A stretch of DNA of 64,000 bases, taken from assembly GCA_016432405.1 (NCBI GenBank), contig CP066687.1:515065-579064 (forward strand). Reading direction: 5' to 3'. Of this stretch, positions 277 to 62,392 are shown piece by piece. Under the pieces are notes generated by a model. That model ran no database searches. It saw only the letters and a list, made by a program, of their open reading frames with translations, and had not been told where the DNA came from. The position numbers and the translations under genes were made by a program. The DNA comes from Candidatus Giovannonibacteria bacterium. Its GTDB lineage: Bacteria; Patescibacteriota; Minisyncoccia; UBA11713; 2-01-FULL-45-33. The stretch's first letter is position 1, and every line of letters begins with the position of its first letter.

Positions 277-1953
277 TCAATAGTCCATGTGGCCACCCAT
301 GCCGCCGCCCATTGGATGTCCGCCAGCTGGCGGATTCTTTTCCGGAATCTCTGTGACGGCGGCGCCGACGGTGAGATAATTCGCCGCTACGGAAACGGCG
401 TTTTGAAAAGCGATTTTTACGACCTTCAGCGGGTCAATAATGCCGGCTTCTTTGAGGTCGCCGATTTTATTGGTTGCGGCGTTAAATCCCAGCCATTGCG
501 CTTTGTTATCGTCTCCATTATTTGCCTTTTTTTGCTTTACCAATTCATCAATAATTTTATTTACGGATTCTCCGCTATTTTGAATGATGGCCTCTACGGG
601 GGCTCTTAGCGCTTTATTCAAAATCCCGGTAGCGGCCAGGGTAGCAGAAACGGCATGTTCAATAATTTCTCCCTGTGCCGAAACAACCAAATTAAACAGG
701 GCGATTCCTCCGCCCGGAACAATTCCTTCCTCCATCGCGGCGCGGGTTGCCGAAACAGCATCTTCCACTCTTTGTTTTAATTCTTTCTGGGCGGATTCCG
801 TGGGCGCGCCTACTTTAATCACGGCAACGCCTCCGGAAAGTTTGCCGACTCGTTCCTGCAAATTTTTCTTTTCGTATTCCGAGTCCGTCTTTTTAATTTG
901 CGCGCGGATTTGGGCAACTCTTTCTTCTATCGCCTTTTTGTTTCCCTTTCCGCCCACAATCGTGGTGTTGTCTTTGTCCGCCACAACGCGGTGCGCGTGT
1001 CCCAGCTGGCTCACCTCCGTGTTCTCCAGCTTCCTCCCCAAATCCTCCGAGATAAATTCCGCGCCGGTCACAACTGCGATGTCCTGCAGCATCTCTTTTC
1101 TCCTGTCGCCGAATCCCGGCGCTTTTACGCCCAAAACATTAAGCACGCCCCGGAGTTTGTTGACCAAAAGGGCCGCGAGCGCCTCGCCCTCAATTTCATC
1201 GGCAATCAAAACCAGTTCTTTTTTGCCGGTTGCCAAAACCTTTTCCAATAATTTTAAAATATCCTGAATAGACGAAATTTTTTTATCGGTCACCAAAATA
1301 TAAGGGTCTTCCAGTTCGGCAGTCATTTTCTCCTGATTGGAAATCATGTAAGGAGAAACGTATCCGCGGTCAAACTGCAGGCCCTCAACCATTTCGTGCG
1401 AGCTGCCGACGGTGTTGGAATCCTCAATAGTCACAACGCCGTCCCGCCCGACTTTGGACATCACTTCCGCCAAAAGTTTGCCGATCTCCGCGTCTTTTGC
1501 CGCAAGCGTCGCCACCTCCTGCAATTTTTTATTGTCGGAAACGTCTTCTTTTTGCTGCTCCAGCGCCTTCACCACGTCCTCGCTTCCTTTTTTAAGTTCC
1601 TCGGCGAGCTGAATAACATTAAAGCCCTTTTCGTGTATCGCCCGCTCGCCTTCTTCAATAATCGCGTGCGTCAAAACAACGGCGGTTGTGGTGCCGTCGC
1701 CAACGCGGTCGTTGGTTTTGTCGGCGGCTTGTTTTATAAACTCCGCTCCCAAGTTTTCCCATTTGTCCGAAAGCTCAATTTCTTTGGCAACTGTCACCCC
1801 GTCAAAAGTCACCTGCGGCGCGCCGTATCCTTTTTCAATAACCACGGCTCGGCCGCGCGGTCCCAAAGTCATCCGCACCGCCTCGGCCAATTTGTCTATG
1901 CCTTTTTTAATGGCGCTCCGCGCCTCTTCGTTAAATTTTATTTGTTTTGCCAT
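277..1953 (-). CDS. groL: Chaperonin GroEL (60 kDa chaperonin)
   Basis: 558 aa. N-term MAKQIKF..., motif GDGTTTA, C-terminal GGM repeat tail (GGMGGHMDY). Immediately downstream of groES on the same strand. Confidence 0.97.
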   Translation of the reverse strand: MAKQIKFNEEARSAIKKGIDKLAEAVRMTLGPRGRAVVIEKGYGAPQVTFDGVTVAKEIELSDKWENLGAEFIKQAADKTNDRVGDGTTTAVVLTHAIIEEGERAIHEKGFNVIQLAEELKKGSEDVVKALEQQKEDVSDNKKLQEVATLAAKDAEIGKLLAEVMSKVGRDGVVTIEDSNTVGSSHEMVEGLQFDRGYVSPYMISNQEKMTAELEDPYILVTDKKISSIQDILKLLEKVLATGKKELVLIADEIEGEALAALLVNKLRGVLNVLGVKAPGFGDRRKEMLQDIAVVTGAEFISEDLGRKLENTEVSQLGHAHRVVADKDNTTIVGGKGNKKAIEERVAQIRAQIKKTDSEYEKKNLQERVGKLSGGVAVIKVGAPTESAQKELKQRVEDAVSATRAAMEEGIVPGGGIALFNLVVSAQGEIIEHAVSATLAATGILNKALRAPVEAIIQNSGESVNKIIDELVKQKKANNGDDNKAQWLGFNAATNKIGDLKEAGIIDPLKVVKIAFQNAVSVAANYLTVGAAVTEIPEKNPPAGGHPMGGGMGGHMDY

Positions 1954-2509: not shown

Positions 2510-3070
2510 TTATTTAAAATCAAGAATTTTTAATAATTTTTCTGCTATTGCTCTCCTTTCGGGTAAAGATTTTTTAATCGAGAGTTCATATCGTGCCGCA
2601 AGGTTAATAATTTTGCTAAAGCTGATTTTGGCCACTTTTTGATTATCAACAAAGAAGATATACATTACTTTTAGAGTTTTTGAATAACATTCCCAAAATT
2701 CTAAATTTCTAGCCAAATAATCAAATAAAATTTGATAAATACGGCTCATTTTATATTTCCTCCTTTTATAACCAAAACCAATCGCCCAACAAATAACAGA
2801 GTAACGGCTTCGGTACAGATTATTCTTCATTTTTTCAGGGCGATTAGTCAAAGGTGCTATAGTCAAGCCAGCAAAAGCAGAAGCAAACGGTCCTCGTATA
2901 TACTTTGCCTCAATTAATAAAACTTGTTTTTTTCGTTCGACTTGTAAATCCCATCCGGTTTCTGACATACCTCTTGACCGATCTTTTCTCGTCCATTTTG
3001 CCCCTGAGCGTTTGGGGTCTAAAAAATATTTTTCCAAAGGATTAACGACAAATTTTTCTTCTTGCGTCAT
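2510..3070 (-). CDS. Hypothetical protein, possible PD-(D/E)XK nuclease fold
   Basis: 186 aa ORF in an AT-rich segment between groES and uvrA. Contains GWDLQVERKKQVLLIEAKY, which resembles a D...(D/E)xK nuclease core. No family recognised with confidence. Confidence 0.55.
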   Translation of the reverse strand: MTQEEKFVVNPLEKYFLDPKRSGAKWTRKDRSRGMSETGWDLQVERKKQVLLIEAKYIRGPFASAFAGLTIAPLTNRPEKMKNNLYRSRYSVICWAIGFGYKRRKYKMSRIYQILFDYLARNLEFWECYSKTLKVMYIFFVDNQKVAKISFSKIINLAARYELSIKKSLPERRAIAEKLLKILDFK

Positions 3071-3201: not shown

Positions 3202-6200
3202 TTATAGTATTCTACGCAACCACTCTCCGGTGTATGATTTTTTGTGGGAGGCGATCTCTTTCGGGGCGCCTTCGGCGACCACCTCCCCGCCGTTGCCGCC
3301 GCCGTCCGGACCGAGGTCAATTATCCAGTCGGCGTTTTTTAAGACGTCCAAATTATGTTCAACAACCAAGACGCTGTTGCCTTTATCCACCAGTGCGGAG
3401 AGAATATTTAAAAGTTTTTGGATATCGTCAAAATGGAGGCCAGTTGTCGGCTCGTCTAAAATATAAAGAGTTCGCCCCGTGGCTTTTTTGGAAAGCTCAA
3501 ACGCGAGCTTCACTCTCTGCGCCTCGCCGCCCGAAAGCGTCGTCGCCGGCTGGCCCAGCTTCATGTATCCCAAGCCAACCTCAACGAGAGTTTTCAGGCG
3601 CTGGTCAATTTGCGGAATGTCTTTAAAAAACTTATGCGCCTCTTCTATTGATAAATCCAAAACATCGGCGATATTTTTATTTTGATACAAAATTTCCAGC
3701 GCTTCTTTATTGTACCGCTTGCCGTGGCATTCCTCGCATTCCACGTAAATATCCGGCAAAAAATACATCTCTATTTTTTTAACCCCCTGCCCTTCGCAAA
3801 CCTCGCATCTCCCGCCTTTGACATTGAAGGAGAAGCGTCCCGATTTGTATCCACGGGCGCGCGCCTCAATAGTCCGCGCGTAAATTTCGCGTATAAACGA
3901 AAACACTCCGGTGTAAGTCGCGGGGTTGGAGCGCGGCGTGCGTCCGATGGGTGACTGGTCCACCAACACCGCCTTATCAATATTTTCCAAACCCTCAATT
4001 TTTTTATGCTTGCCCGGCTCTTCTTTTGAGCCGTAAAAATATTTCAAAAGCGCCTTTGCCAAAATGTCGGAGATGAGCGAGGATTTCCCCGACCCCGAAA
4101 CTCCGGAGACGGCGACCAGCTTGCCCAAAGGAATCTTTACGTCAATATTTTTAAGATTGTGCTCGGAAGCGCCTTTGATGGTCAACTTATCCGCACTTGC
4201 CTTGGCGCTAGGTTTTGCAAGGACACGCATATTCGCCTGCTGGCGAATTGCTCTGCTCGCCCCGTCGGTCTGCGCAAGGTCTTGCAAAACCTGCGCCTTC
4301 GGCTCGCTTTTCACTTCTTTTCTGCCAGACAAATATTCCCCAGTCAAAGTTCTCGCGCGTAAAAGTTCTTTATAAGTTCCTTCAAAAATAACTTGGCCGC
4401 CGCGCTTGCCGGCGCCTGGACCCAAATCAATTATCCAATCGGCTTCCTTCATCGTCTCGGCATCGTGCTCCACAACTAATACGGTATTCCCCAAATCGCG
4501 CAAATCTTTCAGCGTTTTAATCAGCCGCGCATGGTCTCTTGCATGGAGCCCGATTGACGGCTCGTCTAAAACGTAAATCACTCCCGTCAAGGCCGAGCCG
4601 ATCTGAGTCGCAAGCCGCACCCTCTGCGCTTCGCCACCTGCCAGCGTCGTGGACTCGCGGTCTATGGTCAGGTAATCCAAACCCACCTCCAACAAAAATT
4701 CCAGCCGCCGCAAAATTTCTCTAAGCAACGGACGCAAAGCGCCACCTCCCCCAACCCCCTCCTTCGTAAGGAGGGGAATAAAAAAATTTCTTGCATCCGA
4801 AATAGTAAGAGCGGAAATCTCGGCAATATTTTTGTCGGCGTAGGTTACGGCCAGCGCTTCCGGCTTAAGCCGCCTGCCCTTGCAGACGGGGCATTGCTCC
4901 ACGCGCATGTATTTTTCTATTTCTTCTCTAGTCCATTCCGATTCCGTTTCTTTCCACCTGCGTTTCAAGTTTTCGATTACTCCTTCGAAACCGCCCGGCT
5001 CCTCGAAACCGGGTTTTGGGACTGCCAAAAAACCCGGTTTCTTCCCGCCGGGCGGTGTTGAGGAGCGAGGCGAATCACCATACAAAATTATTTTCTTTAT
5101 TTTCTCCGGCAATTTCGCGTAAGGCGTGTTTAGAGAAAATCCGTGCCTCTCCGCCAAATCAGATAAAATCCACCAATACCAGGATTGCCGCCCGACTTTG
5201 TGCGAAGCCGTTGCCCATGCCCTGATAGCTCCTTCCGCCAGTGTCAAATTTTTATTTGGGATAACCAAATCCGGCTCAACCTCCAAGGTGCTTCCCAAAC
5301 CGGTGCAATGCGGACAGGCGCCGTAGGGAGAATTGAAAGAAAAAAGGCGCGGTTCAATCTCCGGCAAAGAAACGCCGCAATCCGGGCAGGCAAAGTGCTC
5401 GGAAAAAAGCTGGTCATTTACCCCCACACCAAAATCTTTGGTGTGGGGGTTTATCAATACCAGCCCTTTCCCAATCTTCAGCGCCGTCTCCAAGGACTCG
5501 CGGAGTCGCGGCCTGTCAAGCTCCTTGTCAATGACTAATCTGTCCACCACCACTTCAATATTATGGGCTTGTTTAGGATTCAATCCGCCAGCCGGCGGAT
5601 TTTCCGCTTCGTCCAAGCGCATTATTTCTCCGTCCATCCTCACTCGCAAAAATCCTCCGCGGCGAACCATTTCCAAAATGCTTTTGTGCTCGCCTTTTTT
5701 GCCTCTGACCACGGGCGCGAAAATATCTATCCGCGAGCCGTTCTTTAACCCGCCTGCGCGGGCAGGTTTCAAAATGTGATTTAAAATTTCGTCCGCGCTC
5801 TGCCTGCCTATTTTTTTGCCGCATTTCGGACAGTGCGGCTCACCGGCACGCGCGAATAAAATACGGAGGTAATCGTAAACTTCCGTAATTGTGCCGACGG
5901 TTGAGCGCGGATTTTTTGCCACGCTTTTCTGGTCAATGGCGATGGCCGGCGAAAGGCCGGAGATGGAATCGGCTTCCGGCTTTTCTTTAACGCCCAAAAA
6001 TTGCCGCGCGTAGGAAGAAAGCGACTCCACAAACCGCCTTTCGGCTTCGGCGTAAATAGTGTCAAAAGCCAGAGATGATTTTCCGGAGCCGGAAAGCCCG
6101 GTGATAACCACGAGTTTATTTTTCGGAATATCCAAATCAATATTTTTAAGGTTATGCACCCTCGCTCCCCTAATCCTTATAAAATTTTTGCCGCTCTCTC

Positions 6201-10748: not shown

Positions 10749-10830
10749 GCCCCAGTGGCGGAACTGGAATACGCGTACGGCTCAGAACCGTATCCCGCAA
10801 GGGTTAGAGGTTCAAATCCTCTCTGGGGCA
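10749..10830 (+). tRNA. tRNA-Leu (anticodon CAG)
   Basis: Hand-folded: acceptor GCCCCAG/CTGGGGC, anticodon arm TACGG-CTCAGAA-CCGTA, long variable arm CCCGCAAGGG, T-arm AGAGG-TTCAAAT-CCTCT, discriminator A. Confidence 0.9.
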
Positions 10831-27000: not shown

Positions 27001-27698
27001 AGCTGGGGGACAAGCCGGCTTAAATTAATCTCTGACGCGAGCTTACGGAGAGCTTCCGAGCCGATGCCCGCCTCAAAAATGTGCGCGTATTTTAAGCTGA
27101 AGCGGTGATATTCCACTTCGGAGATAACCGCCTTCTCGCAGAGCCCCTTGATTTCGCCGACGGTGGCGTCGTAGACGGATTTAAGTGCCTCCGCTTCGGC
27201 CGGGGCGGCCGACTTCATCTTGGATTTAAATTCTTTCTCAACCGCGGCCAAGACCTCTTTCCTTGCTTTTTCGTCAATCTTGGTAATAACGTATCCACCG
27301 AAATAAATCACTTTTTCCAAATCCGGCACGGACATGTCCAAAATCAAGCCGATTCTTGAAGGCACCCCCCTTAAAAACCAGATATGCGAAACGGGGGAAG
27401 CAAGCTCAATGTGCCCCATTCTTTCCCTGCGGACGATTGACCTGGTCACTTCCACTCCGCATTTGTCGCAGACGATTCCCTTGTACCTGACGCGCTTGTA
27501 TTTTCCGCAATAGCATTCGTAATCTTTCTCCGGCCCGAAGATGCGCTCGTCAAAGAGCCCGTCTTTTTCCGGGCGCTGGGTCCTGTAATTTATGGTTTCC
27601 GGTTTTGTGATTTCGCCTCTGGACCAGCTCAAAACCTTCTCGCGCGAAGCGAGGCGGATTGCCAACGATTTAAAATCAGCTATTTTTTGCGACTCCAT
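24054..27698 (-). CDS. rpoC: DNA-directed RNA polymerase subunit beta'
   Basis: 1214 aa. Zn-binding CxxC N-terminus, catalytic NADFDGDQM. Confidence 0.97.
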
Positions 27699-50342: not shown

Positions 50343-52030
50343 AGCAATCTTTCCGGTTCGGGGGCGGGGACCATGTCTGCTTTGCTTTTTTCTCTCTCCA
50401 AAAAAATATCCAGCAAGCTTCCGGAAAATTCTTTCAGTTCTTTGCTACCCAGCGCCCAAAGCGACGCCGCCGTCGCCAAAATCCCCAAAACACCGGCCAA
50501 AAACCCTTGCCCGAAAACCCCAAAAAATGTGTGCAGGTCAAAAACGCGCGAAAAAATATCCAGCCCCAAGTAAGCCGCGAGTCCGCCCACGGCGCTCGCG
50601 GAAAGAACCTGCAAAAACGCCCGCCCAATCCCGCGCCAGCTAAACCCCACGAAAACATTTTTAAAAACAAACGCCAGAAAAATGAAATTAAAAACACTGC
50701 CCGCCAAAATCCCCAAAGGCAAAGACACGGCGCGTATGTCGGAGATGTCTTCTATCCGGAGCAGGGAGCCAAAAACATCTTTTAAAAATCCTCCCTCCCC
50801 GAGCGCAGCCGAAAACCAAAAGACGGCGCCCACGGAAAGAACCGACGACACGGCATTGATGATAAGCGGCCTCCACGATTCCCCCTCCGCGTAAAAAGCG
50901 CGAGTTAAGAGCATAAATACACTTTGAAAAACTATGGCTAAACTCAATATTGAAAGCGCCGCGGCTGTAAGCCGCGTATCGGTCCAGCTGAAAGCCCCGC
51001 TCCCCAAAACAACCCTGACTATCTGCGCCCGCAGCACCAAAATCAAAACCGCCATCGGCAGAGTCCAGAAAATTATATGCCGCATGGCCGCGGAGAAATG
51101 TTTTTCAAACTCCTCTTTTGATTTTTTGAGAGACGAAGCAACCAAATCCGGAAAAGCGGCCACGCTGTAAGAAAGCCCAATGATCGTCACCGGAATAAAT
51201 TCCAGGTTGAGCGCCAGATTAAACACGGCGATGCTCCCCTGCGAAAAAGTTGAGGCAATGCCGGTTAAAATAAAAGTGGTGATTTGTGTAATCTGGAGCC
51301 CCAGGGTTCTGGGCAAAGAAAGCCGGGCGATTTTTTTTATATCTTCGCTCCATATTTTTCCAAACCGGAGAGAAATTCCAAGCCCCCGAAGCGACGGCGC
51401 CTGCGCGCCGAGGTGCAAAAACGCCCCAAAAGCAACCCCCCAGGCAAGGCCCGAGATGCCAAAAAAATCATAGAAAACCAGTATGCCCAAAAGTATCCCG
51501 ACGTTGTAAAAAACAGGCGCGAGGCCGTAAGCAAAAAATCTCCTCACGGCCTGCGTCGCGCTGGACAAGATGTTTGAAAGGCCCAAAAAAAACGGCGAGA
51601 GGAGTAAAATGCGGGAAAGCAAGACGGTGCGGCCGATCTCGCCTTCTGAAAATCCCGGCAGAGAGCGGTCGGTTATCCACGGCATCAAAAAAAACGCCGC
51701 GGCGCTCAAAATAACCACAAAAAAAGAAAAAAAGGCGAAGATTGAACCCAAAAGCTCTTCTGCGCCTTTCTTCTCCTCGCCGAATTTTTTTAAAAAAATC
51801 GGGATAATCGCGGTTGAGGCGGTAAAAAGCAGCATAAAAGTGTAAAGAAAGTCCGGCACGCGGAAAGCCGCGTAGTAAATGTCAAGTTCGCGGGATGCGC
51901 CGAAAGTCCCGGCGAGCGCCCTGTCTCTTAAAAGCCCGAGGGCATCGGCCAAAATGCCGAAAAATCCGAGCCAAAAAGCCGCGTGGTGGACATTTCCTAA
52001 ATCGGCGTGGAAGAGTTTTACGAACCTCAT
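50339..52030 (-). CDS. murJ: Lipid II flippase MurJ (MviN)
   Basis: 563 aa polytopic protein. N-terminal GTFGASRELDIYYAAFRVPDFLY is characteristic of MurJ. Confidence 0.9.
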   Translation of the reverse strand: MRFVKLFHADLGNVHHAAFWLGFFGILADALGLLRDRALAGTFGASRELDIYYAAFRVPDFLYTFMLLFTASTAIIPIFLKKFGEEKKGAEELLGSIFAFFSFFVVILSAAAFFLMPWITDRSLPGFSEGEIGRTVLLSRILLLSPFFLGLSNILSSATQAVRRFFAYGLAPVFYNVGILLGILVFYDFFGISGLAWGVAFGAFLHLGAQAPSLRGLGISLRFGKIWSEDIKKIARLSLPRTLGLQITQITTFILTGIASTFSQGSIAVFNLALNLEFIPVTIIGLSYSVAAFPDLVASSLKKSKEEFEKHFSAAMRHIIFWTLPMAVLILVLRAQIVRVVLGSGAFSWTDTRLTAAALSILSLAIVFQSVFMLLTRAFYAEGESWRPLIINAVSSVLSVGAVFWFSAALGEGGFLKDVFGSLLRIEDISDIRAVSLPLGILAGSVFNFIFLAFVFKNVFVGFSWRGIGRAFLQVLSASAVGGLAAYLGLDIFSRVFDLHTFFGVFGQGFLAGVLGILATAASLWALGSKELKEFSGSLLDIFLEREKSKADMVPAPEPERLL

Positions 52031-54339
52031 CGCCCTTTCACTGGCGGCTCGCTTCTTTTCTCCGGAGCGGGGCCTGCTATGCCGGCGAGCGCAGCTTTTT
52101 TGGCGCGTAGGTTGGACAAAATCTGCTTAACCTCGCCGTTGTCCGGGTTGAGCGCCAGAATTTTTTCAAATTCTGAAACCGCCTCCGCCCTCCTCCCGCC
52201 GCGGTCGTAAATCAGCCCCAAAAAGTACCGGGCGTTGGAATAATTCGCGTTAATTTCAACCGCGCGCCCGAAAACTATCTCCGCGTCGCTTAAGCGATTG
52301 GCTCGGTAATACAAAAGCCCGAGCTGAAAAAGCGTTCCGATATCGTTGGGCGCCAAAAGCGCCGCCGCCTCTCCTCTTTTTATGGCCTCCGCGGCCTGGC
52401 CTTCCGCGTCGTAAACCTGCGCCAAAAGGAAATGGCCTTCAACATAGTCGGGTTTTAAAGAAACCGCCTTCAGCAAATTCTCTTCGGCTTTTTTCAAAGA
52501 GTCGCGATTGTTACGCATAGCGGCGTCGCTAAGATAGACCACGGCTTTGTCTCTCCAAAGAAGCGGATTTGAGGGCGCGCGCTTCAGCGCCTCGTCGTAT
52601 TGCGCCTGGGCCGCCTCCATTCCGCCGGCGGCGCCCAACTGGACCAAAAAGGAGTAAATCTGCCCAAGCGCGCGGTAATTCAAAAAGTCCTGCGGCTCCG
52701 CCTTTTCGGCGGCTTGCGCCGCCGAAACCGCGCGGTCAAGAAAATCTTTAAAGCGCGACCCAAGAATGTCCGGGGGCGTTGCCCTGTCCTGCAGCAAAAG
52801 CTGGCCCTTAGACATATAGACCTGCGAGAGCGTGCGGAGGTAAAGATCATTGGCGCCGTCGGTTTGCGCCGCAATCAATATTTTTCTCTCCGCTTCGTCC
52901 AAATTTCCGGCGTTTATCGCCTCCAGCCCCTTGGCGTAAGCAAGCTGGCCGACATAGCGGACCGAAACCAAGTAAAGCCCTAATGCGCCCAGGATTATAA
53001 AAAAGACGACAACAAGCGCCGAAATAAATCCTCTCGGCCCTTCTTCTTTAACCAAAGAAAATTCGTAAATTTTAAACGCCCCGGAGATGCGCAGCGCCGC
53101 CAAAAGAAGCCCCATGGCAAAGAATCCCAAGGCCGCCAAAACATACCCCGCAGAGTAAAACATAAACATCAAAATCGCCAAGGAAAAAAGCAGGAACGCC
53201 GCGAAAACCAAGGTCTCCGCGCGCGAATCATGCGCGGAAGCAAGCGCCTTCAAACCCAGATACCAAAGCCAGCCAAAAAACGCGAGCAGCAAAGCCCATC
53301 CCAAAACGCCCGTCTCTCCAAGCGCGCTCAAAATATAAGAGGACCCGAGAGTAAAGCGCAGCCCCCAAAACAAAGTGTTATTGACTTCGGCCGGCTTGTA
53401 TTTATCCCAAAGGTAGCCGAAGGACGCCGGGCCGGTTCCAAAAACGGTGTTTTCTTTAAGCGCTTTCCCCGCAACCTGCAAAGTGGCGCTGTGGGAAACT
53501 CCGACTTCCAAGGGCGCCGGGAAAGCAATTGAGGAAGCGATGAGCGCCGTAAATAAAAAAGCAAAAAGCGCGACCAAAAGAAGCGCCAAAGGAAACCCGA
53601 CTCCGGCGAGCGAAGTATTTTTGCGCCAGATGCCGTAGCTCAAAAGCAAAATCGCAAAAAATCCGATAATGCCCCAAAGCACCGGGAAATTAACCACCAG
53701 TACCAAAAGCAAAGAAAGTAAAAACAGCGCCGCCATAACCCACCTCGCCGCGCCGGACGAAACAGATAAAAAAGGATAAAGCAGCATAAGAAAAAACGCC
53801 GCCGTAAATCCAACGCTGTTCCATGAGCCAACGGGATTAAAAGCGCGCGCCGCGAAAAGACCGCCTAAGGATTGGCCGAGCCCGAAAACGGAAAATATCC
53901 ATACCATTGCCAAAAAGACAGTGAGCCCCAAGCCCAGAGCGACCATGAGCCGCGAGAAATGAGCCGGCTCGGAAAAAAGCGTCATTATCATAAAACTCAT
54001 CAAAGAAAAAGTAAGCAGCGCCAAAAAACTGGAGGGCTCGGCGGCAATTCCCCAAAGCGAAGCGCCCGAGCGGGAAATAACCGCCGAAGCCAAAACGGAA
54101 AGCAAAAACGCGCCCCATATTATAAAAACATGATGGTACGGCAGAGAAACGCTGCCCGCTCTTATGGAATGCGCGAGGTATAAAACGAAAGACAAAAACA
54201 CCAAAACCGAGACCATGAGCAGTTTGTTGAATTCAACCGGAGCTATGGTTACGGGCAAAAACCATACCGGCAGTAAAAAAGCGAGCGCCAAGAGGCACCA
54301 CTCTGCCGCTTTGTGTAGAGAATCGCTTGATATAGTCAT
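52027..54339 (-). CDS. O-antigen ligase-like (Wzy_C) membrane protein with C-terminal TPR repeats
   Basis: True start is most likely the ATG at 54339 (MTISSDSLHKAAEW...). The track's longer N-terminal extension (to 54600) overlaps the RNase P RNA and is spurious. Multiple TM helices, then TPR repeats (SDAAMRNNRDSLKKAEENLLKAV...). Confidence 0.8.
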   Translation of the reverse strand: MTISSDSLHKAAEWCLLALAFLLPVWFLPVTIAPVEFNKLLMVSVLVFLSFVLYLAHSIRAGSVSLPYHHVFIIWGAFLLSVLASAVISRSGASLWGIAAEPSSFLALLTFSLMSFMIMTLFSEPAHFSRLMVALGLGLTVFLAMVWIFSVFGLGQSLGGLFAARAFNPVGSWNSVGFTAAFFLMLLYPFLSVSSGAARWVMAALFLLSLLLVLVVNFPVLWGIIGFFAILLLSYGIWRKNTSLAGVGFPLALLLVALFAFLFTALIASSIAFPAPLEVGVSHSATLQVAGKALKENTVFGTGPASFGYLWDKYKPAEVNNTLFWGLRFTLGSSYILSALGETGVLGWALLLAFFGWLWYLGLKALASAHDSRAETLVFAAFLLFSLAILMFMFYSAGYVLAALGFFAMGLLLAALRISGAFKIYEFSLVKEEGPRGFISALVVVFFIILGALGLYLVSVRYVGQLAYAKGLEAINAGNLDEAERKILIAAQTDGANDLYLRTLSQVYMSKGQLLLQDRATPPDILGSRFKDFLDRAVSAAQAAEKAEPQDFLNYRALGQIYSFLVQLGAAGGMEAAQAQYDEALKRAPSNPLLWRDKAVVYLSDAAMRNNRDSLKKAEENLLKAVSLKPDYVEGHFLLAQVYDAEGQAAEAIKRGEAAALLAPNDIGTLFQLGLLYYRANRLSDAEIVFGRAVEINANYSNARYFLGLIYDRGGRRAEAVSEFEKILALNPDNGEVKQILSNLRAKKAALAGIAGPAPEKRSEPPVKGR

Positions 54340-54341
54340 AT

Positions 54342-54378
54342 AGAAGATTATAAAAATAACCCAGCCCCGACGCAAGGT
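54342..54378 (-). terminator. Rho-independent terminator of rnpB
   Basis: Minus strand reads CCCAGCCCCGAC-cttgc-GTCGGGGCTGGG followed by TTATTTTTAT. Confidence 0.7.
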
Positions 54379-54381
54379 CGG

Positions 54382-54882
54382 GGCTGGGGATTTGGATTCT
54401 CCGCTCATAAGCCGAGTTCTGTTTAAATAGCCATCTGTCTGGTCCCGCGATTGCTCTGCGGGATCTAGCGTCCGACTACCGAGGTTAACTCGACGTCGGA
54501 CTTGCACCGGGCCCCGACGTAAAGCCGGGGTCCCGACTTCGCTATCAAAAATTTTAATAGTGCGTCGGGACAAGTGTTTTTCACCGCGCGCTGTCACCAA
54601 CGCGCGCTGTGAGCTTTTACCTCACCTCTTTTCACCCTTGCGCTATCAACGCTTCCGGCTTTAGACCGAAAATGATGACGTCCGCGGTATTGTCTCTGTG
54701 ACACTCTCTCGTCCCGCCGTTGGCGGGAGGTGGCCGTTAGCCACTGCCTCTGCCAAAGTTGCCCGAAGCGCAGCGAGGCCGCAACTTTGAGCATCCCGAC
54801 TTTACGTCGGGATTACCTTAGCGGTGCTCGGACTTTCCTCCCTTCCCAAAGCTTGCGCATTGTGGCGGGCGGCTATCCGGCG
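54382..54882 (-). ncRNA. rnpB: RNase P RNA, bacterial type A (M1 RNA)
   Basis: Minus strand contains GGAGGAAAGTCCGAGC (P4 5' strand/CR-I), AGGGTGAAAAGAGGTGAGGTAAAAGCTCAC (CR-II/III), ACAGAACTCGGCTTA (CR-V, P4 3' strand), and P1 pairing GATTCTTCGC/GCGGAGAATC. Consensus promoter upstream and terminator downstream. Length about 500 nt suggests lineage-specific insertions. Confidence 0.8.
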
Positions 54883-54886
54883 AAGA

Positions 54887-54914
54887 ATCTTCCTACATTA
54901 TAGCAGCGTCCCAA
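54887..54914 (-). promoter_or_regulatory. rnpB promoter
   Basis: Minus strand reads TTGCAA (54909-54914), 16 nt, TATAAT (54887-54892). The transcription start coincides with the P1 5' strand. Confidence 0.65.
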
Positions 54915-54928
54915 AAAATTGCAAGCAT

Positions 54929-57900
54929 CTAAAAAGCGTCTGCCGGGGACTTGTCGGTTGTGTTTCCGCTGAAAGTCGCGCCAGTCGCCTGAATCGTTGA
55001 GTTGGAAGAAGAAACCCCCAGGAAGTTATCGGAAAACGAAACTGTGTTCAAAACCACTCCGGCGTTGGCGGCAACCAGCGCCGTTGAATTGCTCGCGGGC
55101 GAGGCGTGGTTATTAAATTCAAAATTGGTGAGCGTTGAGGTCGCGTGGTCGTAAAGCCGCATTCCGGCCTTGTAATTATTCTCAATCCGCCCGTCCGACA
55201 AACTGACGCTCCCGCCAAAAACTCCGATGCCCGCTATGGCGTTAGGGTTGCCTCCCGCGCCATATCCGCCGTAGCGCAAAGTGAACCCGCCGCCATACAT
55301 ATATCCGCCGGAATTTACCACAATGCCGTACCACTCGCCGGGCGCCGTGTCCGCCAAAGAAGTGAAAACGATACTGCTTTTGCTCGCGCCTTCAAGTTTT
55401 AACGCGCCGTTTACGGTGAGCCGCGAAGAGCTGTCCTCGCCGGCAAACCGCGCGCCCGCTTCCAAAACCAAACCCGCTCCGGCGGAAATTTCGGCATTTG
55501 ACGAAGAAATTGTTAGGTAAGCCAGAGAATTAGAAGCGAGCGTCGTCGTCCCGCCCGCTGCAGAAATCGTCCCCAAAAGCGCTATGCCGTTTTTGCCGTT
55601 GCCCGCGCCGGAATTCCCAGAAAAAGTGCTGGAGCCGTTTGATGAATACAAAGCGTAAGAAATATTATTGTTAAAAATATTATTCGCGTAAGACGCGGCC
55701 GCCCCTTCCGCCTTTGCTCCAAAATAATTTTCCGAAAACGTGTTTCCGGAAACGGTCGGCGCTCCGCCCACGACGTAAAACCCGACGTTATCCGCCGTCG
55801 TCGTGCCCACAGAGAAGGTATTGTTCTGAATTGTGGAGTTAGAAGTCGTCAATCTTGCTCCCGCCGAAAAAGAATTTTCAAAAATTGAATTGGAAATGGT
55901 TATGGAGTTGTCAATAACGCTCAAAAGCGCTCTGCGTTCCTGCGGGATATTGCTGGCAAACCCGCCGCCGTATTTAAAACGGGTATGGCTTACGCTGGAA
56001 TTCTGGCTGCTGGAGGTAATCCGCACGTTTCTCCAGCTGCCCGCCGCGGGAGAGCCCGACAAAGCGGTAAATAAAATATTGTTTGCCGCAGTGCCGTCTG
56101 ATTTTAGAGTGCCGTCCACAATCAAATCAGCCGAGTCGCCCATCTTCACCGTAACTCCCGGCTCAATCGTCAAAGTTTTGCCGCTCGCGATTGTCAGAGT
56201 TTCGTTGTCTTTTATAATGTAGGTTCCGAAAGATTGTTTTAACGTTTTGTCGGAAGATAAAGTCGCGCCCTGCGAAATTAAATAATGAAGTGAGTTGCGC
56301 GCCCGCGGAGTCGCAGTAAGCGCCGCGCCCGCCGAATCCAAGCCGTTTTTCACAACGCCGTTTGATGTCCCCCAGTTCCCCGTGTCCGTCCCCACGGCTT
56401 CCATATCAATTCTTTCCATTGATGAATAAGTCGGCGAGGCAAGTCCTCCGCACCAAGCGTTGGAGCAAAGAACAGTTTGGTCAATCGTCGTTGATGCGCG
56501 GGATAAAACCAAAGTTTCTCCGCCGTTCCCAAGACCGGAGCCCGCACCCGAGCCGGAAAAAGGCGCAGTGAGGTCGGCGGTCACGTCGCTTACGGTGTCA
56601 TTATCCGTCCTTTCTATTAAATAATATCCTCCGGCGGAAATTGTTCCCGAAAGATTAATATACGGAACGCCGTCGCCCGCGTATAAAACCCAATTCGCGA
56701 TACTCACGCTTTTTGAACTTCTATTATAAAGCTCAATCCACTCGTCGGCGCTGTTCGCAGAAGTTCCCGCCCAGGCGATTTCATTTATGACAACAGGGCG
56801 AGTGAAAAACACGACCGTCTTAGTCGTTTGCGCGCTCTCGTTGCCGGCATTGTCCACCGCTTTTGCTTTGAAAATATAAGTGGAATCGTCCGCGGGCAAA
56901 GAATAAATTGTGGAAGTCGCCGTGGTGCTCGCAAAATTAAATCCGTCGCAACTTACACCTCCCACTTCACACCTCACATCGTAATGATTCAGGTCGCCCG
57001 CGGCGCTGGACCAGGAAACAGTGGCGGTTGAGCTTGCCACAAGGCATTCGCCGGCAACGGAAGCCAGCCCGGGGCATTCCGAAACGTCCAAAGAAATATC
57101 CGGAGCGGTTGTGTCGGAAGCCGGAGTTTCCGCAGGCGGCGTCGGCGTGCCTCCGCCAAAGCCGGGAGAACCGCCTCCGCCCGCCGCCTGCAACTGCAAA
57201 AAAGGCGGTAAATCCTCATTCGGGGACTTAGTTTCCAAGTTGGCTGCTTCACTTGGTTGTTGGACAACCAAATTGGTTACGCCGCCCGGCGAGAGAACAC
57301 TGCCCGACTCCTCGAAACCTGGTTTTGAGACTTCCAAAAAACCAGGTTTCTTCCCGTCGGGCAGTTTTAAGAAGTCGGGCGGCTCACTTGGCGGTGAAAC
57401 CGCCAAGTGGGGCTCAAATGCGCTTTGAGGAATCTCTTCAACCAACGGCTTCGGCTCTTCTTTATTATTTAAACCGACCGCGCCGCTAACTTGCGACGGA
57501 AGCAAACTCGCCACCCTGTCAAAAATCGTTTTATTTTTCGCCAACAATCTTTTGTTCTCTCTCTCCTCCTCAACCGCCTCAAAAAACAATCTCACCACCC
57601 CAACCCCATGCAAAACCGCTTGTTTGGAAAGATGAGACCAGTAGTCATTCATTACATAAGTATTATCGTCAAATTTAGTTATAAATTTTGAGTTATCTCC
57701 TTTCAGAGTCTCTAATTTAACCAAACGCAATTTCTTGCTATCAAGTTCTCCGTATGCAAAGTAATATTGAACCCCATCAATATGTTCTACACTGATACTC
57801 TTGATAATTGGATTAAAATACTCTTTTGATTTTTCTGGCGTTGTATCCTTGCTAAAAAAATTATTATTAGAATAAGTCGCCATTGAATCAAAATATTCCC

Positions 57901-60868: not shown

Positions 60869-62392
60869 ATGCTCACCCCTCGTCAAAAACAGGTACTGGA
60901 TTTTGTAAGCTCCTACACCAAAAAGCGGGGTTTTGCGCCCTCCATTAAAGAAATGGGGCAAAGGATTGGCTTGGCCATATCTACAATTCATCAGCATTTA
61001 ACGGCGCTGCAAAATAAGGGTTATCTGCAACGACAAAAAAATCAAAAAAGAGGCATTGAAGTATCTTCATCAGAGAAGCTAGTAAAAATTCCTTTATGGG
61101 GAACAATAGCCGCAGGCGAACCAATCCATGTATTTGAAGCACATAAAGAAGCCATTGCTGTCCCAAAAAGTAAAATCCCCTCTTCATCGGAGGTCTACGC
61201 CCTCCGCGTTGTGGGCAACAGCATGATTGATGAAAATATAAACGACGGAGACGTCGTTTTGGTGCGCCAGCAAGAAACTGCCGAGAATGGAGAAAGGGTA
61301 GTGGCTCTCATTGATAATCACGAAGCAACCTTAAAGAAATTTTATAAAGAGCGCGGACATATTCGCTTACAACCGGCAAACAAAAACATGGAGCCGCTTA
61401 TTTTCAGAAATGGGAGGGATGTTTCAATACAAGGAATTGTACTTGATGTTATCCGTGAAGAAACACCAATATCTATTGTCTTTCCAGAAATTAAGACGGA
61501 AATCAAACAATATAAAAAACTTCCTATTAACAAAATAATTTTAGGAGATGCGATGCAAGAATTAAAGAAACTTCCTGATGAAAGTTGTGATGTTATCGTT
61601 ATTGATCCCCCATACAATATCGGGAAAGATTTTGGAAATAATCTTGATAAGCGAGAACTGAGCGAATATGTTGCGTGGTGTAAAAAATGGATAAATGAAT
61701 GCGTTAGAGCAATGAAACCAACTGGAACAATGTTTATTTATGGTTTTAGCGAAATTTTAGCCCATCTTTCTGTTGAAATTCCTATAAATAAACGCTGGCT
61801 TATTTGGCATTATACAAACAAAAACGTTGCCTCACTCAATTTTTGGCAGAGAAGTCATGAAGCAATTATCTGTGCATGGAAAAACAAACCAATTTTCAAT
61901 AGAGACGAAGTTAGAGAGCCCTACACGGAGGGGTTTTTGAATGGGGCCGCAGGAAAAATAAGAAAGGGCACATTAGGGAGATTTAGTGGGAGCGGTGTAG
62001 AAACTGTTTACAAAGCCCATGAGGGCGGCGCGTTGCCGCGAGATGTCATCAAAGCTCCTGCCCTGGCTGGAGGAGCCGGAATGGTAGAAAGATGGTTTTT
62101 GTGCAAAACGTGCGATGATGTTTTTGAACCGCGACAATTGAAAAAACACAATGGACACAAAATAATTAAACATCCCACGCAAAAGCCCCTTGAATTATCA
62201 AAAAAATTGATCGCATCAGCTATGCCTAAAAAGGATGGCGTTGTCTTAGTGCCATTTGTCGGTACTGGTTCGGAGTGCGTAGCGGCAAAAGAGTTAGGCC
62301 AATCGTATATTGGATTTGAAATCAATCAAGATTATATAAAAATTGCTGAAAAATTTTTGAGCTCCACTAACTTTGCGCCAAAATTATTTTAA
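60869..62392 (+). CDS. LexA-like repressor (wHTH plus S24 peptidase) translationally fused to a beta-class N6-adenine (DPPY) DNA methyltransferase
   Basis: Continuous 507 aa ORF. Residues 1 to about 200 form a complete LexA: LTPRQKQVLDF wHTH, Ala-Gly cleavage site IAAGEPI, catalytic Ser in VVGNSM and Lys in ATLKKF. Residues about 225-507 form an MTase with motif IV DPPY then motif I FVGTGS (beta-class order). Confidence 0.8.
   Translation: MLTPRQKQVLDFVSSYTKKRGFAPSIKEMGQRIGLAISTIHQHLTALQNKGYLQRQKNQKRGIEVSSSEKLVKIPLWGTIAAGEPIHVFEAHKEAIAVPKSKIPSSSEVYALRVVGNSMIDENINDGDVVLVRQQETAENGERVVALIDNHEATLKKFYKERGHIRLQPANKNMEPLIFRNGRDVSIQGIVLDVIREETPISIVFPEIKTEIKQYKKLPINKIILGDAMQELKKLPDESCDVIVIDPPYNIGKDFGNNLDKRELSEYVAWCKKWINECVRAMKPTGTMFIYGFSEILAHLSVEIPINKRWLIWHYTNKNVASLNFWQRSHEAIICAWKNKPIFNRDEVREPYTEGFLNGAAGKIRKGTLGRFSGSGVETVYKAHEGGALPRDVIKAPALAGGAGMVERWFLCKTCDDVFEPRQLKKHNGHKIIKHPTQKPLELSKKLIASAMPKKDGVVLVPFVGTGSECVAAKELGQSYIGFEINQDYIKIAEKFLSSTNFAPKLF

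Follow-up and report, generated by a model that had tools for sequence, protein, structure and literature searches.

A dispersed double-hairpin element within an unusually long RNase P RNA gene of Candidatus Giovannonibacteria

In a 64-kb stretch of a Candidatus Giovannonibacteria genome (contig CP066687.1; Parcubacteria, candidate phyla radiation (CPR); called the window throughout), the RNase P RNA gene, rnpB, appears to encode a working type A ribozyme that carries a 59-nt double hairpin, apparently one copy of an element dispersed among stable-RNA genes of Parcubacteria. That the region is a real rnpB we regard as practically certain. By sequence comparison its RNA is ~110 nt longer than those of relatives, mainly via inserted small hairpin modules, and the double hairpin behaves, as judged by its sequence and distribution, like a mobile palindromic element living in stable-RNA genes. 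Taken as a whole, the picture we consider likely is that the RNA is active and keeps the mobile element as a passenger that expands it.

A complete rnpB gene close to the detection threshold

An earlier reading of the sequence had placed rnpB on the minus strand of the window and named a cmscan search against Rfam as the check. At the gathering threshold, this search of the whole window gave a single RNase P RNA match, to the bacterial type A family RF00010 (RNaseP_bact_a), at 54392–54888 on the minus strand. The match spans 497 nt and the complete model (positions 1–367) and exceeds the gathering score of 100 (111.6 bits, E=2.7e-33). Motifs of the gene were located at RNA positions 48–63 (GGAGGAAAGTCCGAGC), 251–259 (AGGGTGAAA), 268–280 (GGTAAAAGCTCAC) and 467–481 (ACAGAACTCGGCTTA), and RNA 1–9 pair with 485–493 to form helix P1. 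The CR-I, CR-II/III and CR-V blocks (GGAGGAAAGUCCGAGC, AGGGUGAAA, GGUAAAAGCUCAC and ACAGAACUCGGCUUA) are all present and are invariant in 11 clade members, that is, the window and ten relatives, some from loci where a homologue of the neighbouring protein is encoded and some retrieved by pattern scans. The gene and its signals are:

54897–54924, minus strand: rnpB promoter, with a −35 box TTGCAA (54924–54919), a 16-nt spacer ending in TG and a −10 box TATAAT (54902–54897)
54392–54888, minus strand: rnpB, bacterial type A, 497 nt, from the full-model RF00010 match and covariation across the 11 clade members
54351–54388, minus strand: intrinsic terminator, a 12-bp GC-rich stem (54388–54360, inner part CCCCGAC...GUCGGGG) followed by the T-run TTATTTTTAT

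The TG-extended promoter matches 10 of 12 consensus positions and is the sole promoter-like site within 54200–55100; its sequence is kept in three relatives (loci L001, L002 and L004), and equivalent terminator hairpins are present in rnpB relatives. The motifs, P1 pairing, promoter and terminator named in the original prediction were all found where it had put them. Its interval, 54342–54914, takes in the −10 box and misses the −35 box.

To place the length and score of the RNA, we scanned 18 type A RNAs from unrelated genomes in the same way; they measured 340–471 nt and scored 197–307 bits. The ten same-clade RNAs measured 388–488 nt. The window RNA exceeds both sets in length. Its score is also the lowest, apart from that of the L004 rnpB, which falls below the threshold. 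This closest relative (3665–4134, 470 nt; identical in L145) scores 77.9 bits, under the gathering score, because of its inserts. The expectation of an unusually long RNA of ~500 nt thus held, at ~100–140 nt over typical type A RNAs. A scan of the genome collection with a 3′ rnpB pattern gave, among the matches listed, mostly Melainabacteria and at least five CPR loci, and the remainder served as comparators and controls.

One relative stands apart. L001 (3550–3947) has the closest neighbouring protein (85% identity), and its rnpB has 5′ and 3′ ends near-identical to those of the window. Its specificity domain is very different, with 73.5% identity over gap-free core columns, the lowest value among the Giovannonibacteria-like relatives (a set that excludes L068 and L137). 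Either recombination has shaped the L001 rnpB, or the sequence is a chimera assembled from a public read set.

Covariation supports an intact type A core

We projected a homology-based type A structure of 84 pairs onto the alignment of the 11 clade RNAs. In total, 91.4% of cells were paired, and 42 of the 84 pairs showed compensatory changes on both sides. None of 500 shuffles reached the observed values, and sliding the partners by 1–3 columns lowered pairing to 38–48%. Helices P1, P2, the base of P3, P4, P5, P7, P8, P11, P12, P13, P14 and P15 were each 90–100% paired. The long-range pseudoknot P4, which joins CR-I and CR-V and contains a bulged U, had all eight pairs formed in all 11 sequences, one of them covarying between GC and AU. 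P13 was 98% paired, P14 was 96% paired with six covarying pairs, and P18, closed by a GCAA loop, was paired in 79 of 88 cells with several compensatory changes. The sub-helices of P12 were 95–100% paired, with compensatory change in 11 pairs. P7 still pairs in the window RNA (GC, GU, CG, AU) beside the 59-nt insert. On this comparative evidence, the core of the type A ribozyme is intact. The specificity and catalytic helices fit type A architecture (P13, P14, P18) rather than type B (P10.1, P15.1). P17 and the P6 pseudoknot were not found, and sequence inspection gave no complementarity between the P5–P7 linker and the P16 loop. A P6 pseudoknot with P16/P17 is frequent among type A RNAs without being universal, and CPR RNAs commonly lack these helices (PMC8172020).

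Two kinds of automatic structure were set aside in building this model. The internal alignment of cmscan was rejected at two places: it assigned a hairpin of the P5–P7 linker (A1, described below) to P8, and it took the first part of the 59-nt element for the P7 and P5 3′ strands. According to the clade alignment and covariation, P8 lies at GUGGCUAACGGCCAC and P7 is intact, and the low RF00010 score is explained in part by this misplacement. The unconstrained minimum free energy fold of the whole RNA was also rejected as a model, as it cannot show P4 and favours a duplex between A1 and the short hairpin of the element.

In type A RNase P RNA, a GGU motif in the P15/P16 internal loop pairs with the tRNA 3′-CCA. 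The P15–P16 region of the window reads CUCGGUAGUC with GUA as its 3′ internal loop, which resembles the GGGUAGG of E. coli with one G predicted to be paired. Among the four tRNA genes of the window (at 10749, 39162, 46607 and 46689), only that for tRNA-Gln encodes 3′-CCA, and those for tRNA-Leu, tRNA-Thr and tRNA-Gly do not. This low share of CCA-encoding genes is in keeping with P15 loops that, in most RNase P RNAs of the clade, have a weak CCA-binding motif or none.

The extra nucleotides are hairpin modules at peripheral sites

A per-site length table of the 11 clade RNAs showed gain and loss of hairpins at about eight peripheral sites, with total lengths of 388–497 nt. The variable sites are P3, J5/7, P9, the P10 site (just 5′ of P10/P11), P12, P13, J7/5, P15–16 and J18/2 (before CR-V). 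In the window, four of these regions are placed as follows:

54754–54822, minus strand: P5–P7 insert, RNA 67–135 (69 nt), with hairpins A1 (RNA 76–96, 54813–54793) and A2 (RNA 100–135, 54789–54754)
54635–54687, minus strand: P12, RNA 202–254, longer than the Rfam consensus and typical of the clade
54512–54570, minus strand: double-hairpin element, RNA 319–377 (59 nt), between the 3′ strands of P7 and P5
54470–54501, minus strand: extended P15–P16, RNA 388–419, folding at −16.7 kcal/mol (z=−3.9)

The largest difference lies in the 3′ junction between P7 and P5, which measures 62 nt in the window and 3 nt in all ten relatives; the excess is the 59-nt insert at 54570–54512. On the 5′ side, the P5–P7 linker with its two hairpins is 74 nt long (18–79 nt in relatives) and 95.7% identical to that of L004. 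Its insert folds at −32.6 kcal/mol (z=−5.2) and is absent or different in the relatives other than L004. Hairpin A1 has a CCGAC/GUCGG stem and a GUAAA loop, and its core shares an identical 15-nt stretch with the short hairpin of the 59-nt element. P15–P16 measures 33 nt, compared with 34 nt in L001 and 13–19 nt in the nine other relatives, and consists of a 7-bp GUCCGAC/GUCGGAC stem, a GU/GUA internal loop, a distal stem of 4–5 bp and a UUAAC loop. P12 measures 53 nt in the window and 51–55 nt in 9 of 11 clade members. Compared with shuffled sequence, the window inserts fold with z-scores of −3.9 to −5.3.

It had been suggested that the added length reflects lineage-specific helices. This applies to part of it, as a long P12 and a P5–P7 hairpin of one kind or another occur throughout the clade; it does not apply to the largest piece, the 59-nt insert, which is absent at that site in the ten relatives.

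A second insert family, GCAGCAACCAGC..., is unrelated to the double hairpin. It is shared by the P5–P7 linker of one rnpB and the pre-CR-V segment of another (L007 3474–3528 and L005 3534–3588; 92% identity over 26 nt). As this insert occupies two different sites, module exchange between sites is not limited to one element.

The 59-nt insert of the window is a double hairpin

The element consists of a long AU-looped hairpin (LH, 54570–54531; TCCCGACGCACTATTAAAATTTTTGATAGCGAAGTCGGGA) followed by a short hairpin (SH, 54530–54512; CCCCGGCTTTACGTCGGGG). It folds at −29.9 kcal/mol (z=−5.3) and scores 74 bits (E=2.4e-16) with R1, a covariance model that we built from eight element copies. Among the 11 aligned rnpB genes, the J7/5 site is filled in the window alone. 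A counterpart lies at a different site of rnpB in L004, where the P10-site insert is 85.7% identical to the window element over 56 nt in reverse orientation. Within the window RNA, SH is the reverse complement of hairpin A1 across the hinge.

These relationships raise the question of whether the window copy arose within the gene, either through a template switch during replication or through an intragenic rearrangement, with a neighbouring hairpin being copied in the inverse orientation. L004 carries the element ~190 nt upstream and in opposite orientation, the SH–A1 complementarity within one gene points the same way, and template switching is reported as a source of RNA hairpins (PMC8794818). 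However, the P10 site of the window has no copy, so that a second event, a deletion, would be needed, and the copies in 23S rRNA, spacers and tRNA leaders call for long-range movement anyway. A local origin, which would be compatible with the other alternatives discussed below, therefore seems to us distinctly improbable.

Known RNA families do not account for the element. In a permissive Rfam scan of 54340–54930, known families overlapped it only with chance-level matches, the best at E=0.65; a group I or II intron or a known self-cleaving ribozyme is therefore not supported, and 59 nt is too small for an intron.

Copies of the element lie in and beside other stable-RNA genes

We scanned the metagenome collection with a pattern for LH and obtained 15 loci. 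Rfam and ARAGORN searches, and BLAST with E. coli 23S rRNA as the reference, assigned them to these contexts:

P10 site of rnpB: four loci
23S rRNA around E. coli position 1010: two loci
23S rRNA around E. coli position 1143, with two long hairpins head to head: four loci
23S–5S spacer, 7 nt past the 23S 3′ end: one locus
Spacer ~100 nt past the 16S 3′ end: one locus
Upstream of tRNA genes (tRNA-Arg, tRNA-Ala): three loci

In this small, pattern-selected sample, all full copies lie in or beside stable-RNA genes. R1 scored element copies at 43–84 bits in at least nine distinct contexts. It had one strong match in the window, the rnpB copy, and no match in 746 kb of non-CPR control loci; the element was likewise not found in the viral contigs scanned. 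In the 11 aligned rnpB genes, the P10 site is filled in L003, L004 and L137, that is, in three lineages, and empty in the eight others. The copies of L003/L056 and of the distant L137 have the same orientation as that of L004, and the P10-site and J7/5 copies have opposite orientations. Filled and empty sites, two sites and two orientations in one gene family, unlinked copies and covariation of the stems together make up the usual signature of a mobile palindromic element.

The outermost two pairs of each hairpin covary (C-G, U-A, A-U, G-C) in 11 cells, a value matched by none of 500 shuffles, and the folds of all hairpins are far more stable than those of shuffled controls (z=−3.9 to −7.3). 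When the two strands of a copy are compared, the transcribed one has the more stable fold in 8 of 10 cases, by 1.1–5.3 kcal/mol over the antisense. This preference holds for all six copies inside mature RNAs, and its sign flips with orientation in the window copy. These predicted folds suggest that the fold matters at the RNA level, where it could hold the insert clear of the rest of the molecule or mark a place for processing.

The second of these options leads to a different fate for the insert. The double hairpin, and perhaps other modules, could be an intervening sequence that is cut out by RNase III or another nuclease without re-ligation, which would leave the RNase P RNA in two or three base-paired pieces, much as 23S rRNAs are fragmented in some bacteria. 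The element occurs in 23S rRNA and rRNA operon spacers, classic territory of RNase III processing; the LH helix extends over ~17–19 bp and the alternative A1:SH duplex over 17 bp; and the better-folding strand is that of the transcript. Short non-intron insertions in CPR 23S rRNA have, moreover, been suggested to be RNase III intervening sequences (Tsurumaki et al., PMC11270868). However, a canonical RNase III substrate would have longer and less interrupted stems, and the 23S sites (~1010 and ~1143) do not coincide exactly with the loops of helices 25 and 45 that are classic for such sequences. That we know of no naturally fragmented bacterial RNase P RNA counts further against excision, which we regard as unlikely.

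Alternatively, the element could be a functional module under selection and not selfish DNA, for instance one that binds a protein specific to CPR bacteria or that serves several stable RNAs in folding or in tertiary contacts. The confinement of full copies to stable-RNA genes and their surroundings would fit this idea, as would the covariation of the stems and the bias of folding towards the transcript strand. LH is >90% identical between L004 and L137 despite only ~61% identity of the host RNAs. However, both orientations occur, with GUAAA in one and UUUAC in the other as loops, which is hard to fit to one RNA-level ligand; the element is absent from most orthologues at each site and is therefore dispensable; and the estimate of its conservation is biased by the search pattern. 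We consider such a selected role rather doubtful.

A wider version of both proposals is that the element belongs to a class specialised for the stable RNAs of CPR bacteria and recognised at the RNA level, either for excision or for binding by a dedicated factor. We would give this little weight. If correct, RNA-level recognition would make the module a shared processing or assembly signal in rnpB, 23S rRNA, rRNA spacers and tRNA leaders. Excision in particular would imply naturally fragmented RNase P RNA and rRNA, and the former would be the first naturally split bacterial RNase P RNA known to us.

Similar hairpins occur elsewhere. The window contains seven CCGAC...GTCGG hairpins where 1.08 are expected, and four of the seven lie in rnpB and its terminator. 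A weak element variant with two adjacent CCGAC/GTCGG hairpins (31159–31202; 25.6 bits, E about 1e-3) sits in a ~330-nt gap upstream of rpoB (27680–30979, minus strand). Rfam found no missed RNA gene in the surrounding open reading frame (ORF)-free stretch of ~1 kb (30900–31900). A single CCGAC...GTCGG hairpin at 2020–2050, between a Cpn60 chaperonin ORF (277–1953, minus strand) and an ORF at 2510–3070 (minus strand), may be a terminator of the same hairpin type. In L142 (60–310), and also in L144, the element lies upstream of tRNA-Ala(CGC) among tRNA-like fragments that include a partial duplicate of a 5′ tRNA half. An interruption of a tRNA D-loop by this copy was considered and rejected, as ARAGORN and Rfam gave no tRNA and the flanks, inspected by eye, have no proper anticodon arm or T-arm.

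A proposed active ribozyme with a retained passenger

In type A RNase P, the RNA and the RnpA protein remove the 5′ leaders of precursor tRNAs (pre-tRNAs). The specificity domain (P7–P14) reads the T-arm, RnpA binds the leader, and the catalytic domain (P1–P5, P15, P18) with its metal-binding P4 core cleaves the leader off. We propose that the window gene, an rnpB of the single-copy type, is transcribed from its own sigma-70-type promoter and ended by its intrinsic terminator. That core, promoter and terminator are all intact and that nothing points to decay argues for a working type A RNase P RNA. The ~110 extra nucleotides are not a new conserved domain. They are hairpin modules at P15 and at the hinge between the catalytic and specificity domains, namely two hairpins between P5 and P7 on the 5′ side, the LH–SH double hairpin between P7 and P5 on the 3′ side, and a lengthened P15–P16. 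These modules are predicted to project from the P5/P7 hinge and from P15 without disturbing the core. The 59-nt module would be one copy of a palindromic element dispersed in Parcubacteria, where it enters stable-RNA genes and their spacers in both orientations. It probably spreads at the DNA level and would be kept in the mature RNA as a neutral expansion.

Several observations weigh against this picture. The RNA barely passes the Rfam threshold and its cmscan alignment is locally wrong, the insert sits beside P7 at the hinge of the two domains, where it might impair folding, and the window copy is carried by a single assembled contig. With the core constrained, folding gives −206.3 kcal/mol for the form with the 17-bp A1:SH duplex and −204.1 kcal/mol for the form in which A1 and SH stay separate, which makes the two approximately isoenergetic. 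As the duplex would push the two domains apart, we infer that the active RNase P RNA would use the two-hairpin form. As for mobility, the copies were found by a sequence pattern, so that both their conservation and the list of contexts come from a biased sample. Comparison of the flanks by eye showed no consistent target-site duplication or terminal inverted repeat (CATA/CATA at 23S ~1143, CC/CC beside the window copy and no such repeat at the P10 site of rnpB), and each element hairpin is itself palindromic rather than one arm of a terminal-repeat pair. No linked transposase turned up beside the copies, although no search was aimed at RAYT genes. The word mobile accordingly describes how the element is distributed. 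On these points it does not match the miniature inverted-repeat transposable elements, which have terminal inverted repeats and target-site duplications of fixed length.

The first of these points could also be read as the mark of a pseudogene disabled by insertions, or of a 59-nt insert that is an artefact of metagenome assembly. The Rfam score is the lowest in comparison with the 18 unrelated type A RNAs, one contig supports the insert, and palindromic repeats can confuse assemblers. In contrast, the universally conserved core nucleotides, the core helices, the promoter and the terminator are intact, colinear rnpB sequence continues on both sides of the insert, and independent assemblies show the element cleanly inserted in other rnpB genes. 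Decay or misassembly is, in our view, very hard to credit, and we retain the active RNA with its passenger as the preferred explanation.

Relation to known RNAs and repeat families

Like E. coli M1 RNA and the P RNA of Thermotoga maritima, the window RNA has CR-I to CR-V, the P4 pseudoknot, P1–P5, P7–P14, P15 and P18. It differs from type A RNAs in its length (497 nt against ~340–420 nt for most), in the absence of P17 and the P6 pseudoknot, in the hairpins of the P5–P7 linker, in the 59-nt double hairpin between P7 and P5, and in its near-threshold score. Large helix extensions or missing helices, often P13, P14, P16 and P17, are described for CPR RNase P RNAs in the sections of Lui et al. 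(2021, PLoS Comput Biol, PMC8172020) considered here; these RNAs needed lowered Infernal thresholds and manual refolding, and the tRNA CCA-binding motif was missing in 23 of 35 of them (PMC8172020). The window clade shows the same divergence, with L004 again under threshold. In those sections, however, the extensions are not traced to a shared dispersed element, nor to the same insert across sites, orientations and rRNA genes (PMC8172020). For CPR rRNA genes, insertions of at least 100 bp have been catalogued and the short non-intron ones left uncharacterised (Tsurumaki et al. 2024, PMC11270868); the ~59-nt element falls under this size cut-off.

Three repeat families come nearest to the element, namely Rickettsia palindromic elements (RPEs), mitochondrial double-hairpin elements and STRR repeats. 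Like the element, RPEs are short palindromic repeats, and they have spread in a reduced genome and are tolerated inside genes. RPEs are ~100–150 bp long. They lie mostly in protein-coding or intergenic DNA, whereas our element is ~57–60 nt long and its full copies are in or beside stable-RNA genes. An RPE has been found in the tmRNA gene of R. bellii (PMC1458961). A weak variant of the element inside an rplL-like (L7/L12) coding region of L146 recalls RPEs in protein genes. This double CTCCGAC...GTCGGAG hairpin (4486–4536; 34 bits with R1) is in frame and encodes part of the Ala/Pro-rich hinge of the protein.

The architecture recalls the mitochondrial double-hairpin elements (DHEs) of chytrid fungi and Schizosaccharomyces, which are known from intergenic DNA and from within the gene for the large rRNA (PMC10085805, with reference to Paquin et al. 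2000). As described in the portion of PMC10085805 used here, DHEs share with our element two adjacent hairpins, GC-rich stems in their case, and potential mobility; the host compartment differs and the sequences are unrelated, and that portion describes no DHE in rnpB.

Intervening sequences of 23S rRNA are likewise extra stem-loops of patchy distribution, thought to have spread horizontally. The classic ones are ~90–430 nt long, lie in helices 25 and 45 and are removed by RNase III, whereas the present element is only a candidate for such removal. We know of no intervening sequence in an RNase P RNA. A 1997 study by Vioque in Nucleic Acids Research reportedly found STRR repeats inside P12 of cyanobacterial RNase P RNA that did not destroy its function. 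Both cases involve a genomic repeat family in a peripheral helix or site of rnpB, but STRRs are tandem heptamers in one helix. Finally, REP/REPIN sequences, which RAYT transposases (IS200/IS605-like) mobilise, are extragenic and associated with a RAYT gene, whereas copies of the double hairpin are within RNA genes or in their spacers. Full-text literature searches, of incomplete coverage, returned no description of such an element in rnpB or in Parcubacteria. Diverged CPR RNase P RNAs have been published before; the double-hairpin element apparently has not.

Insertions of this kind have practical consequences, as they push genuine rnpB genes to or below the detection threshold (111.6 bits in the window and 77.9 bits in its closest relative, with a gathering score of 100) and allow predicted protein ORFs to extend across the RNA gene. 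The case also traces some of the unusual structure of CPR RNase P RNAs to hairpin modules gained and lost, at least one of them shared with rRNA genes and their spacers, rather than to slow lineage-specific remodelling. In this way one element family links two CPR peculiarities, diverged RNase P RNAs and insertion-rich rRNA genes. The case further supplies natural mutants with insertions at the hinge that joins the catalytic and specificity domains.

The rnpB gene is hidden under an over-extended ORF

Downstream of rnpB on the same strand lies an ORF at 52027–54600 that starts with TTG and encodes 857 aa. It runs 261 nt upstream of an ATG at 54339 and overlaps the 3′ end of the RNA gene by 209 nt. 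We divide it as follows:

52027–54339, minus strand: true coding sequence of a tetratricopeptide repeat (TPR) membrane protein, 770 aa, directly downstream of rnpB, from the NCBI match and the N-termini of homologues
54340–54600, minus strand: spurious N-terminal extension of 87 codons with a TTG start, through the terminator and the 3′ 209 nt of rnpB

The 770-aa form from ATG 54339 is 100% identical, over its full length, to the NCBI entry 'tetratricopeptide repeat protein [Candidatus Giovannonibacteria bacterium]', encoded on a contig of 651,549 bp, and an M[T/S]ISS motif that aligns with this ATG forms the N-terminal start of most homologues. The claim that the membrane-protein ORF had been extended by ~260 nt through rnpB agrees with both lines of evidence and, on these comparisons, the 857-aa ORF is an artefact. 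The same false extension is present in three public gene calls (P0003, P0006 and P0012; 794, 832 and 719 aa), in which the conserved rnpB 3′ end is translated; in L004, the protein downstream as called by JGI (832 aa) reads through the 3′ end of the RNA gene. In L005/L006 (3501–3927), rnpB lies on the strand opposite to the TPR membrane-protein gene, locally inverted and still adjacent.

Elsewhere in the window, an ORF at 60869–62392 on the plus strand (507 aa) combines a LexA DNA-binding domain, a Peptidase_S24 domain (LexA autocleavage) and an N6/N4 DNA methylase domain. From its domain content, it would be an unusual fusion of an SOS-type repressor with a methyltransferase.

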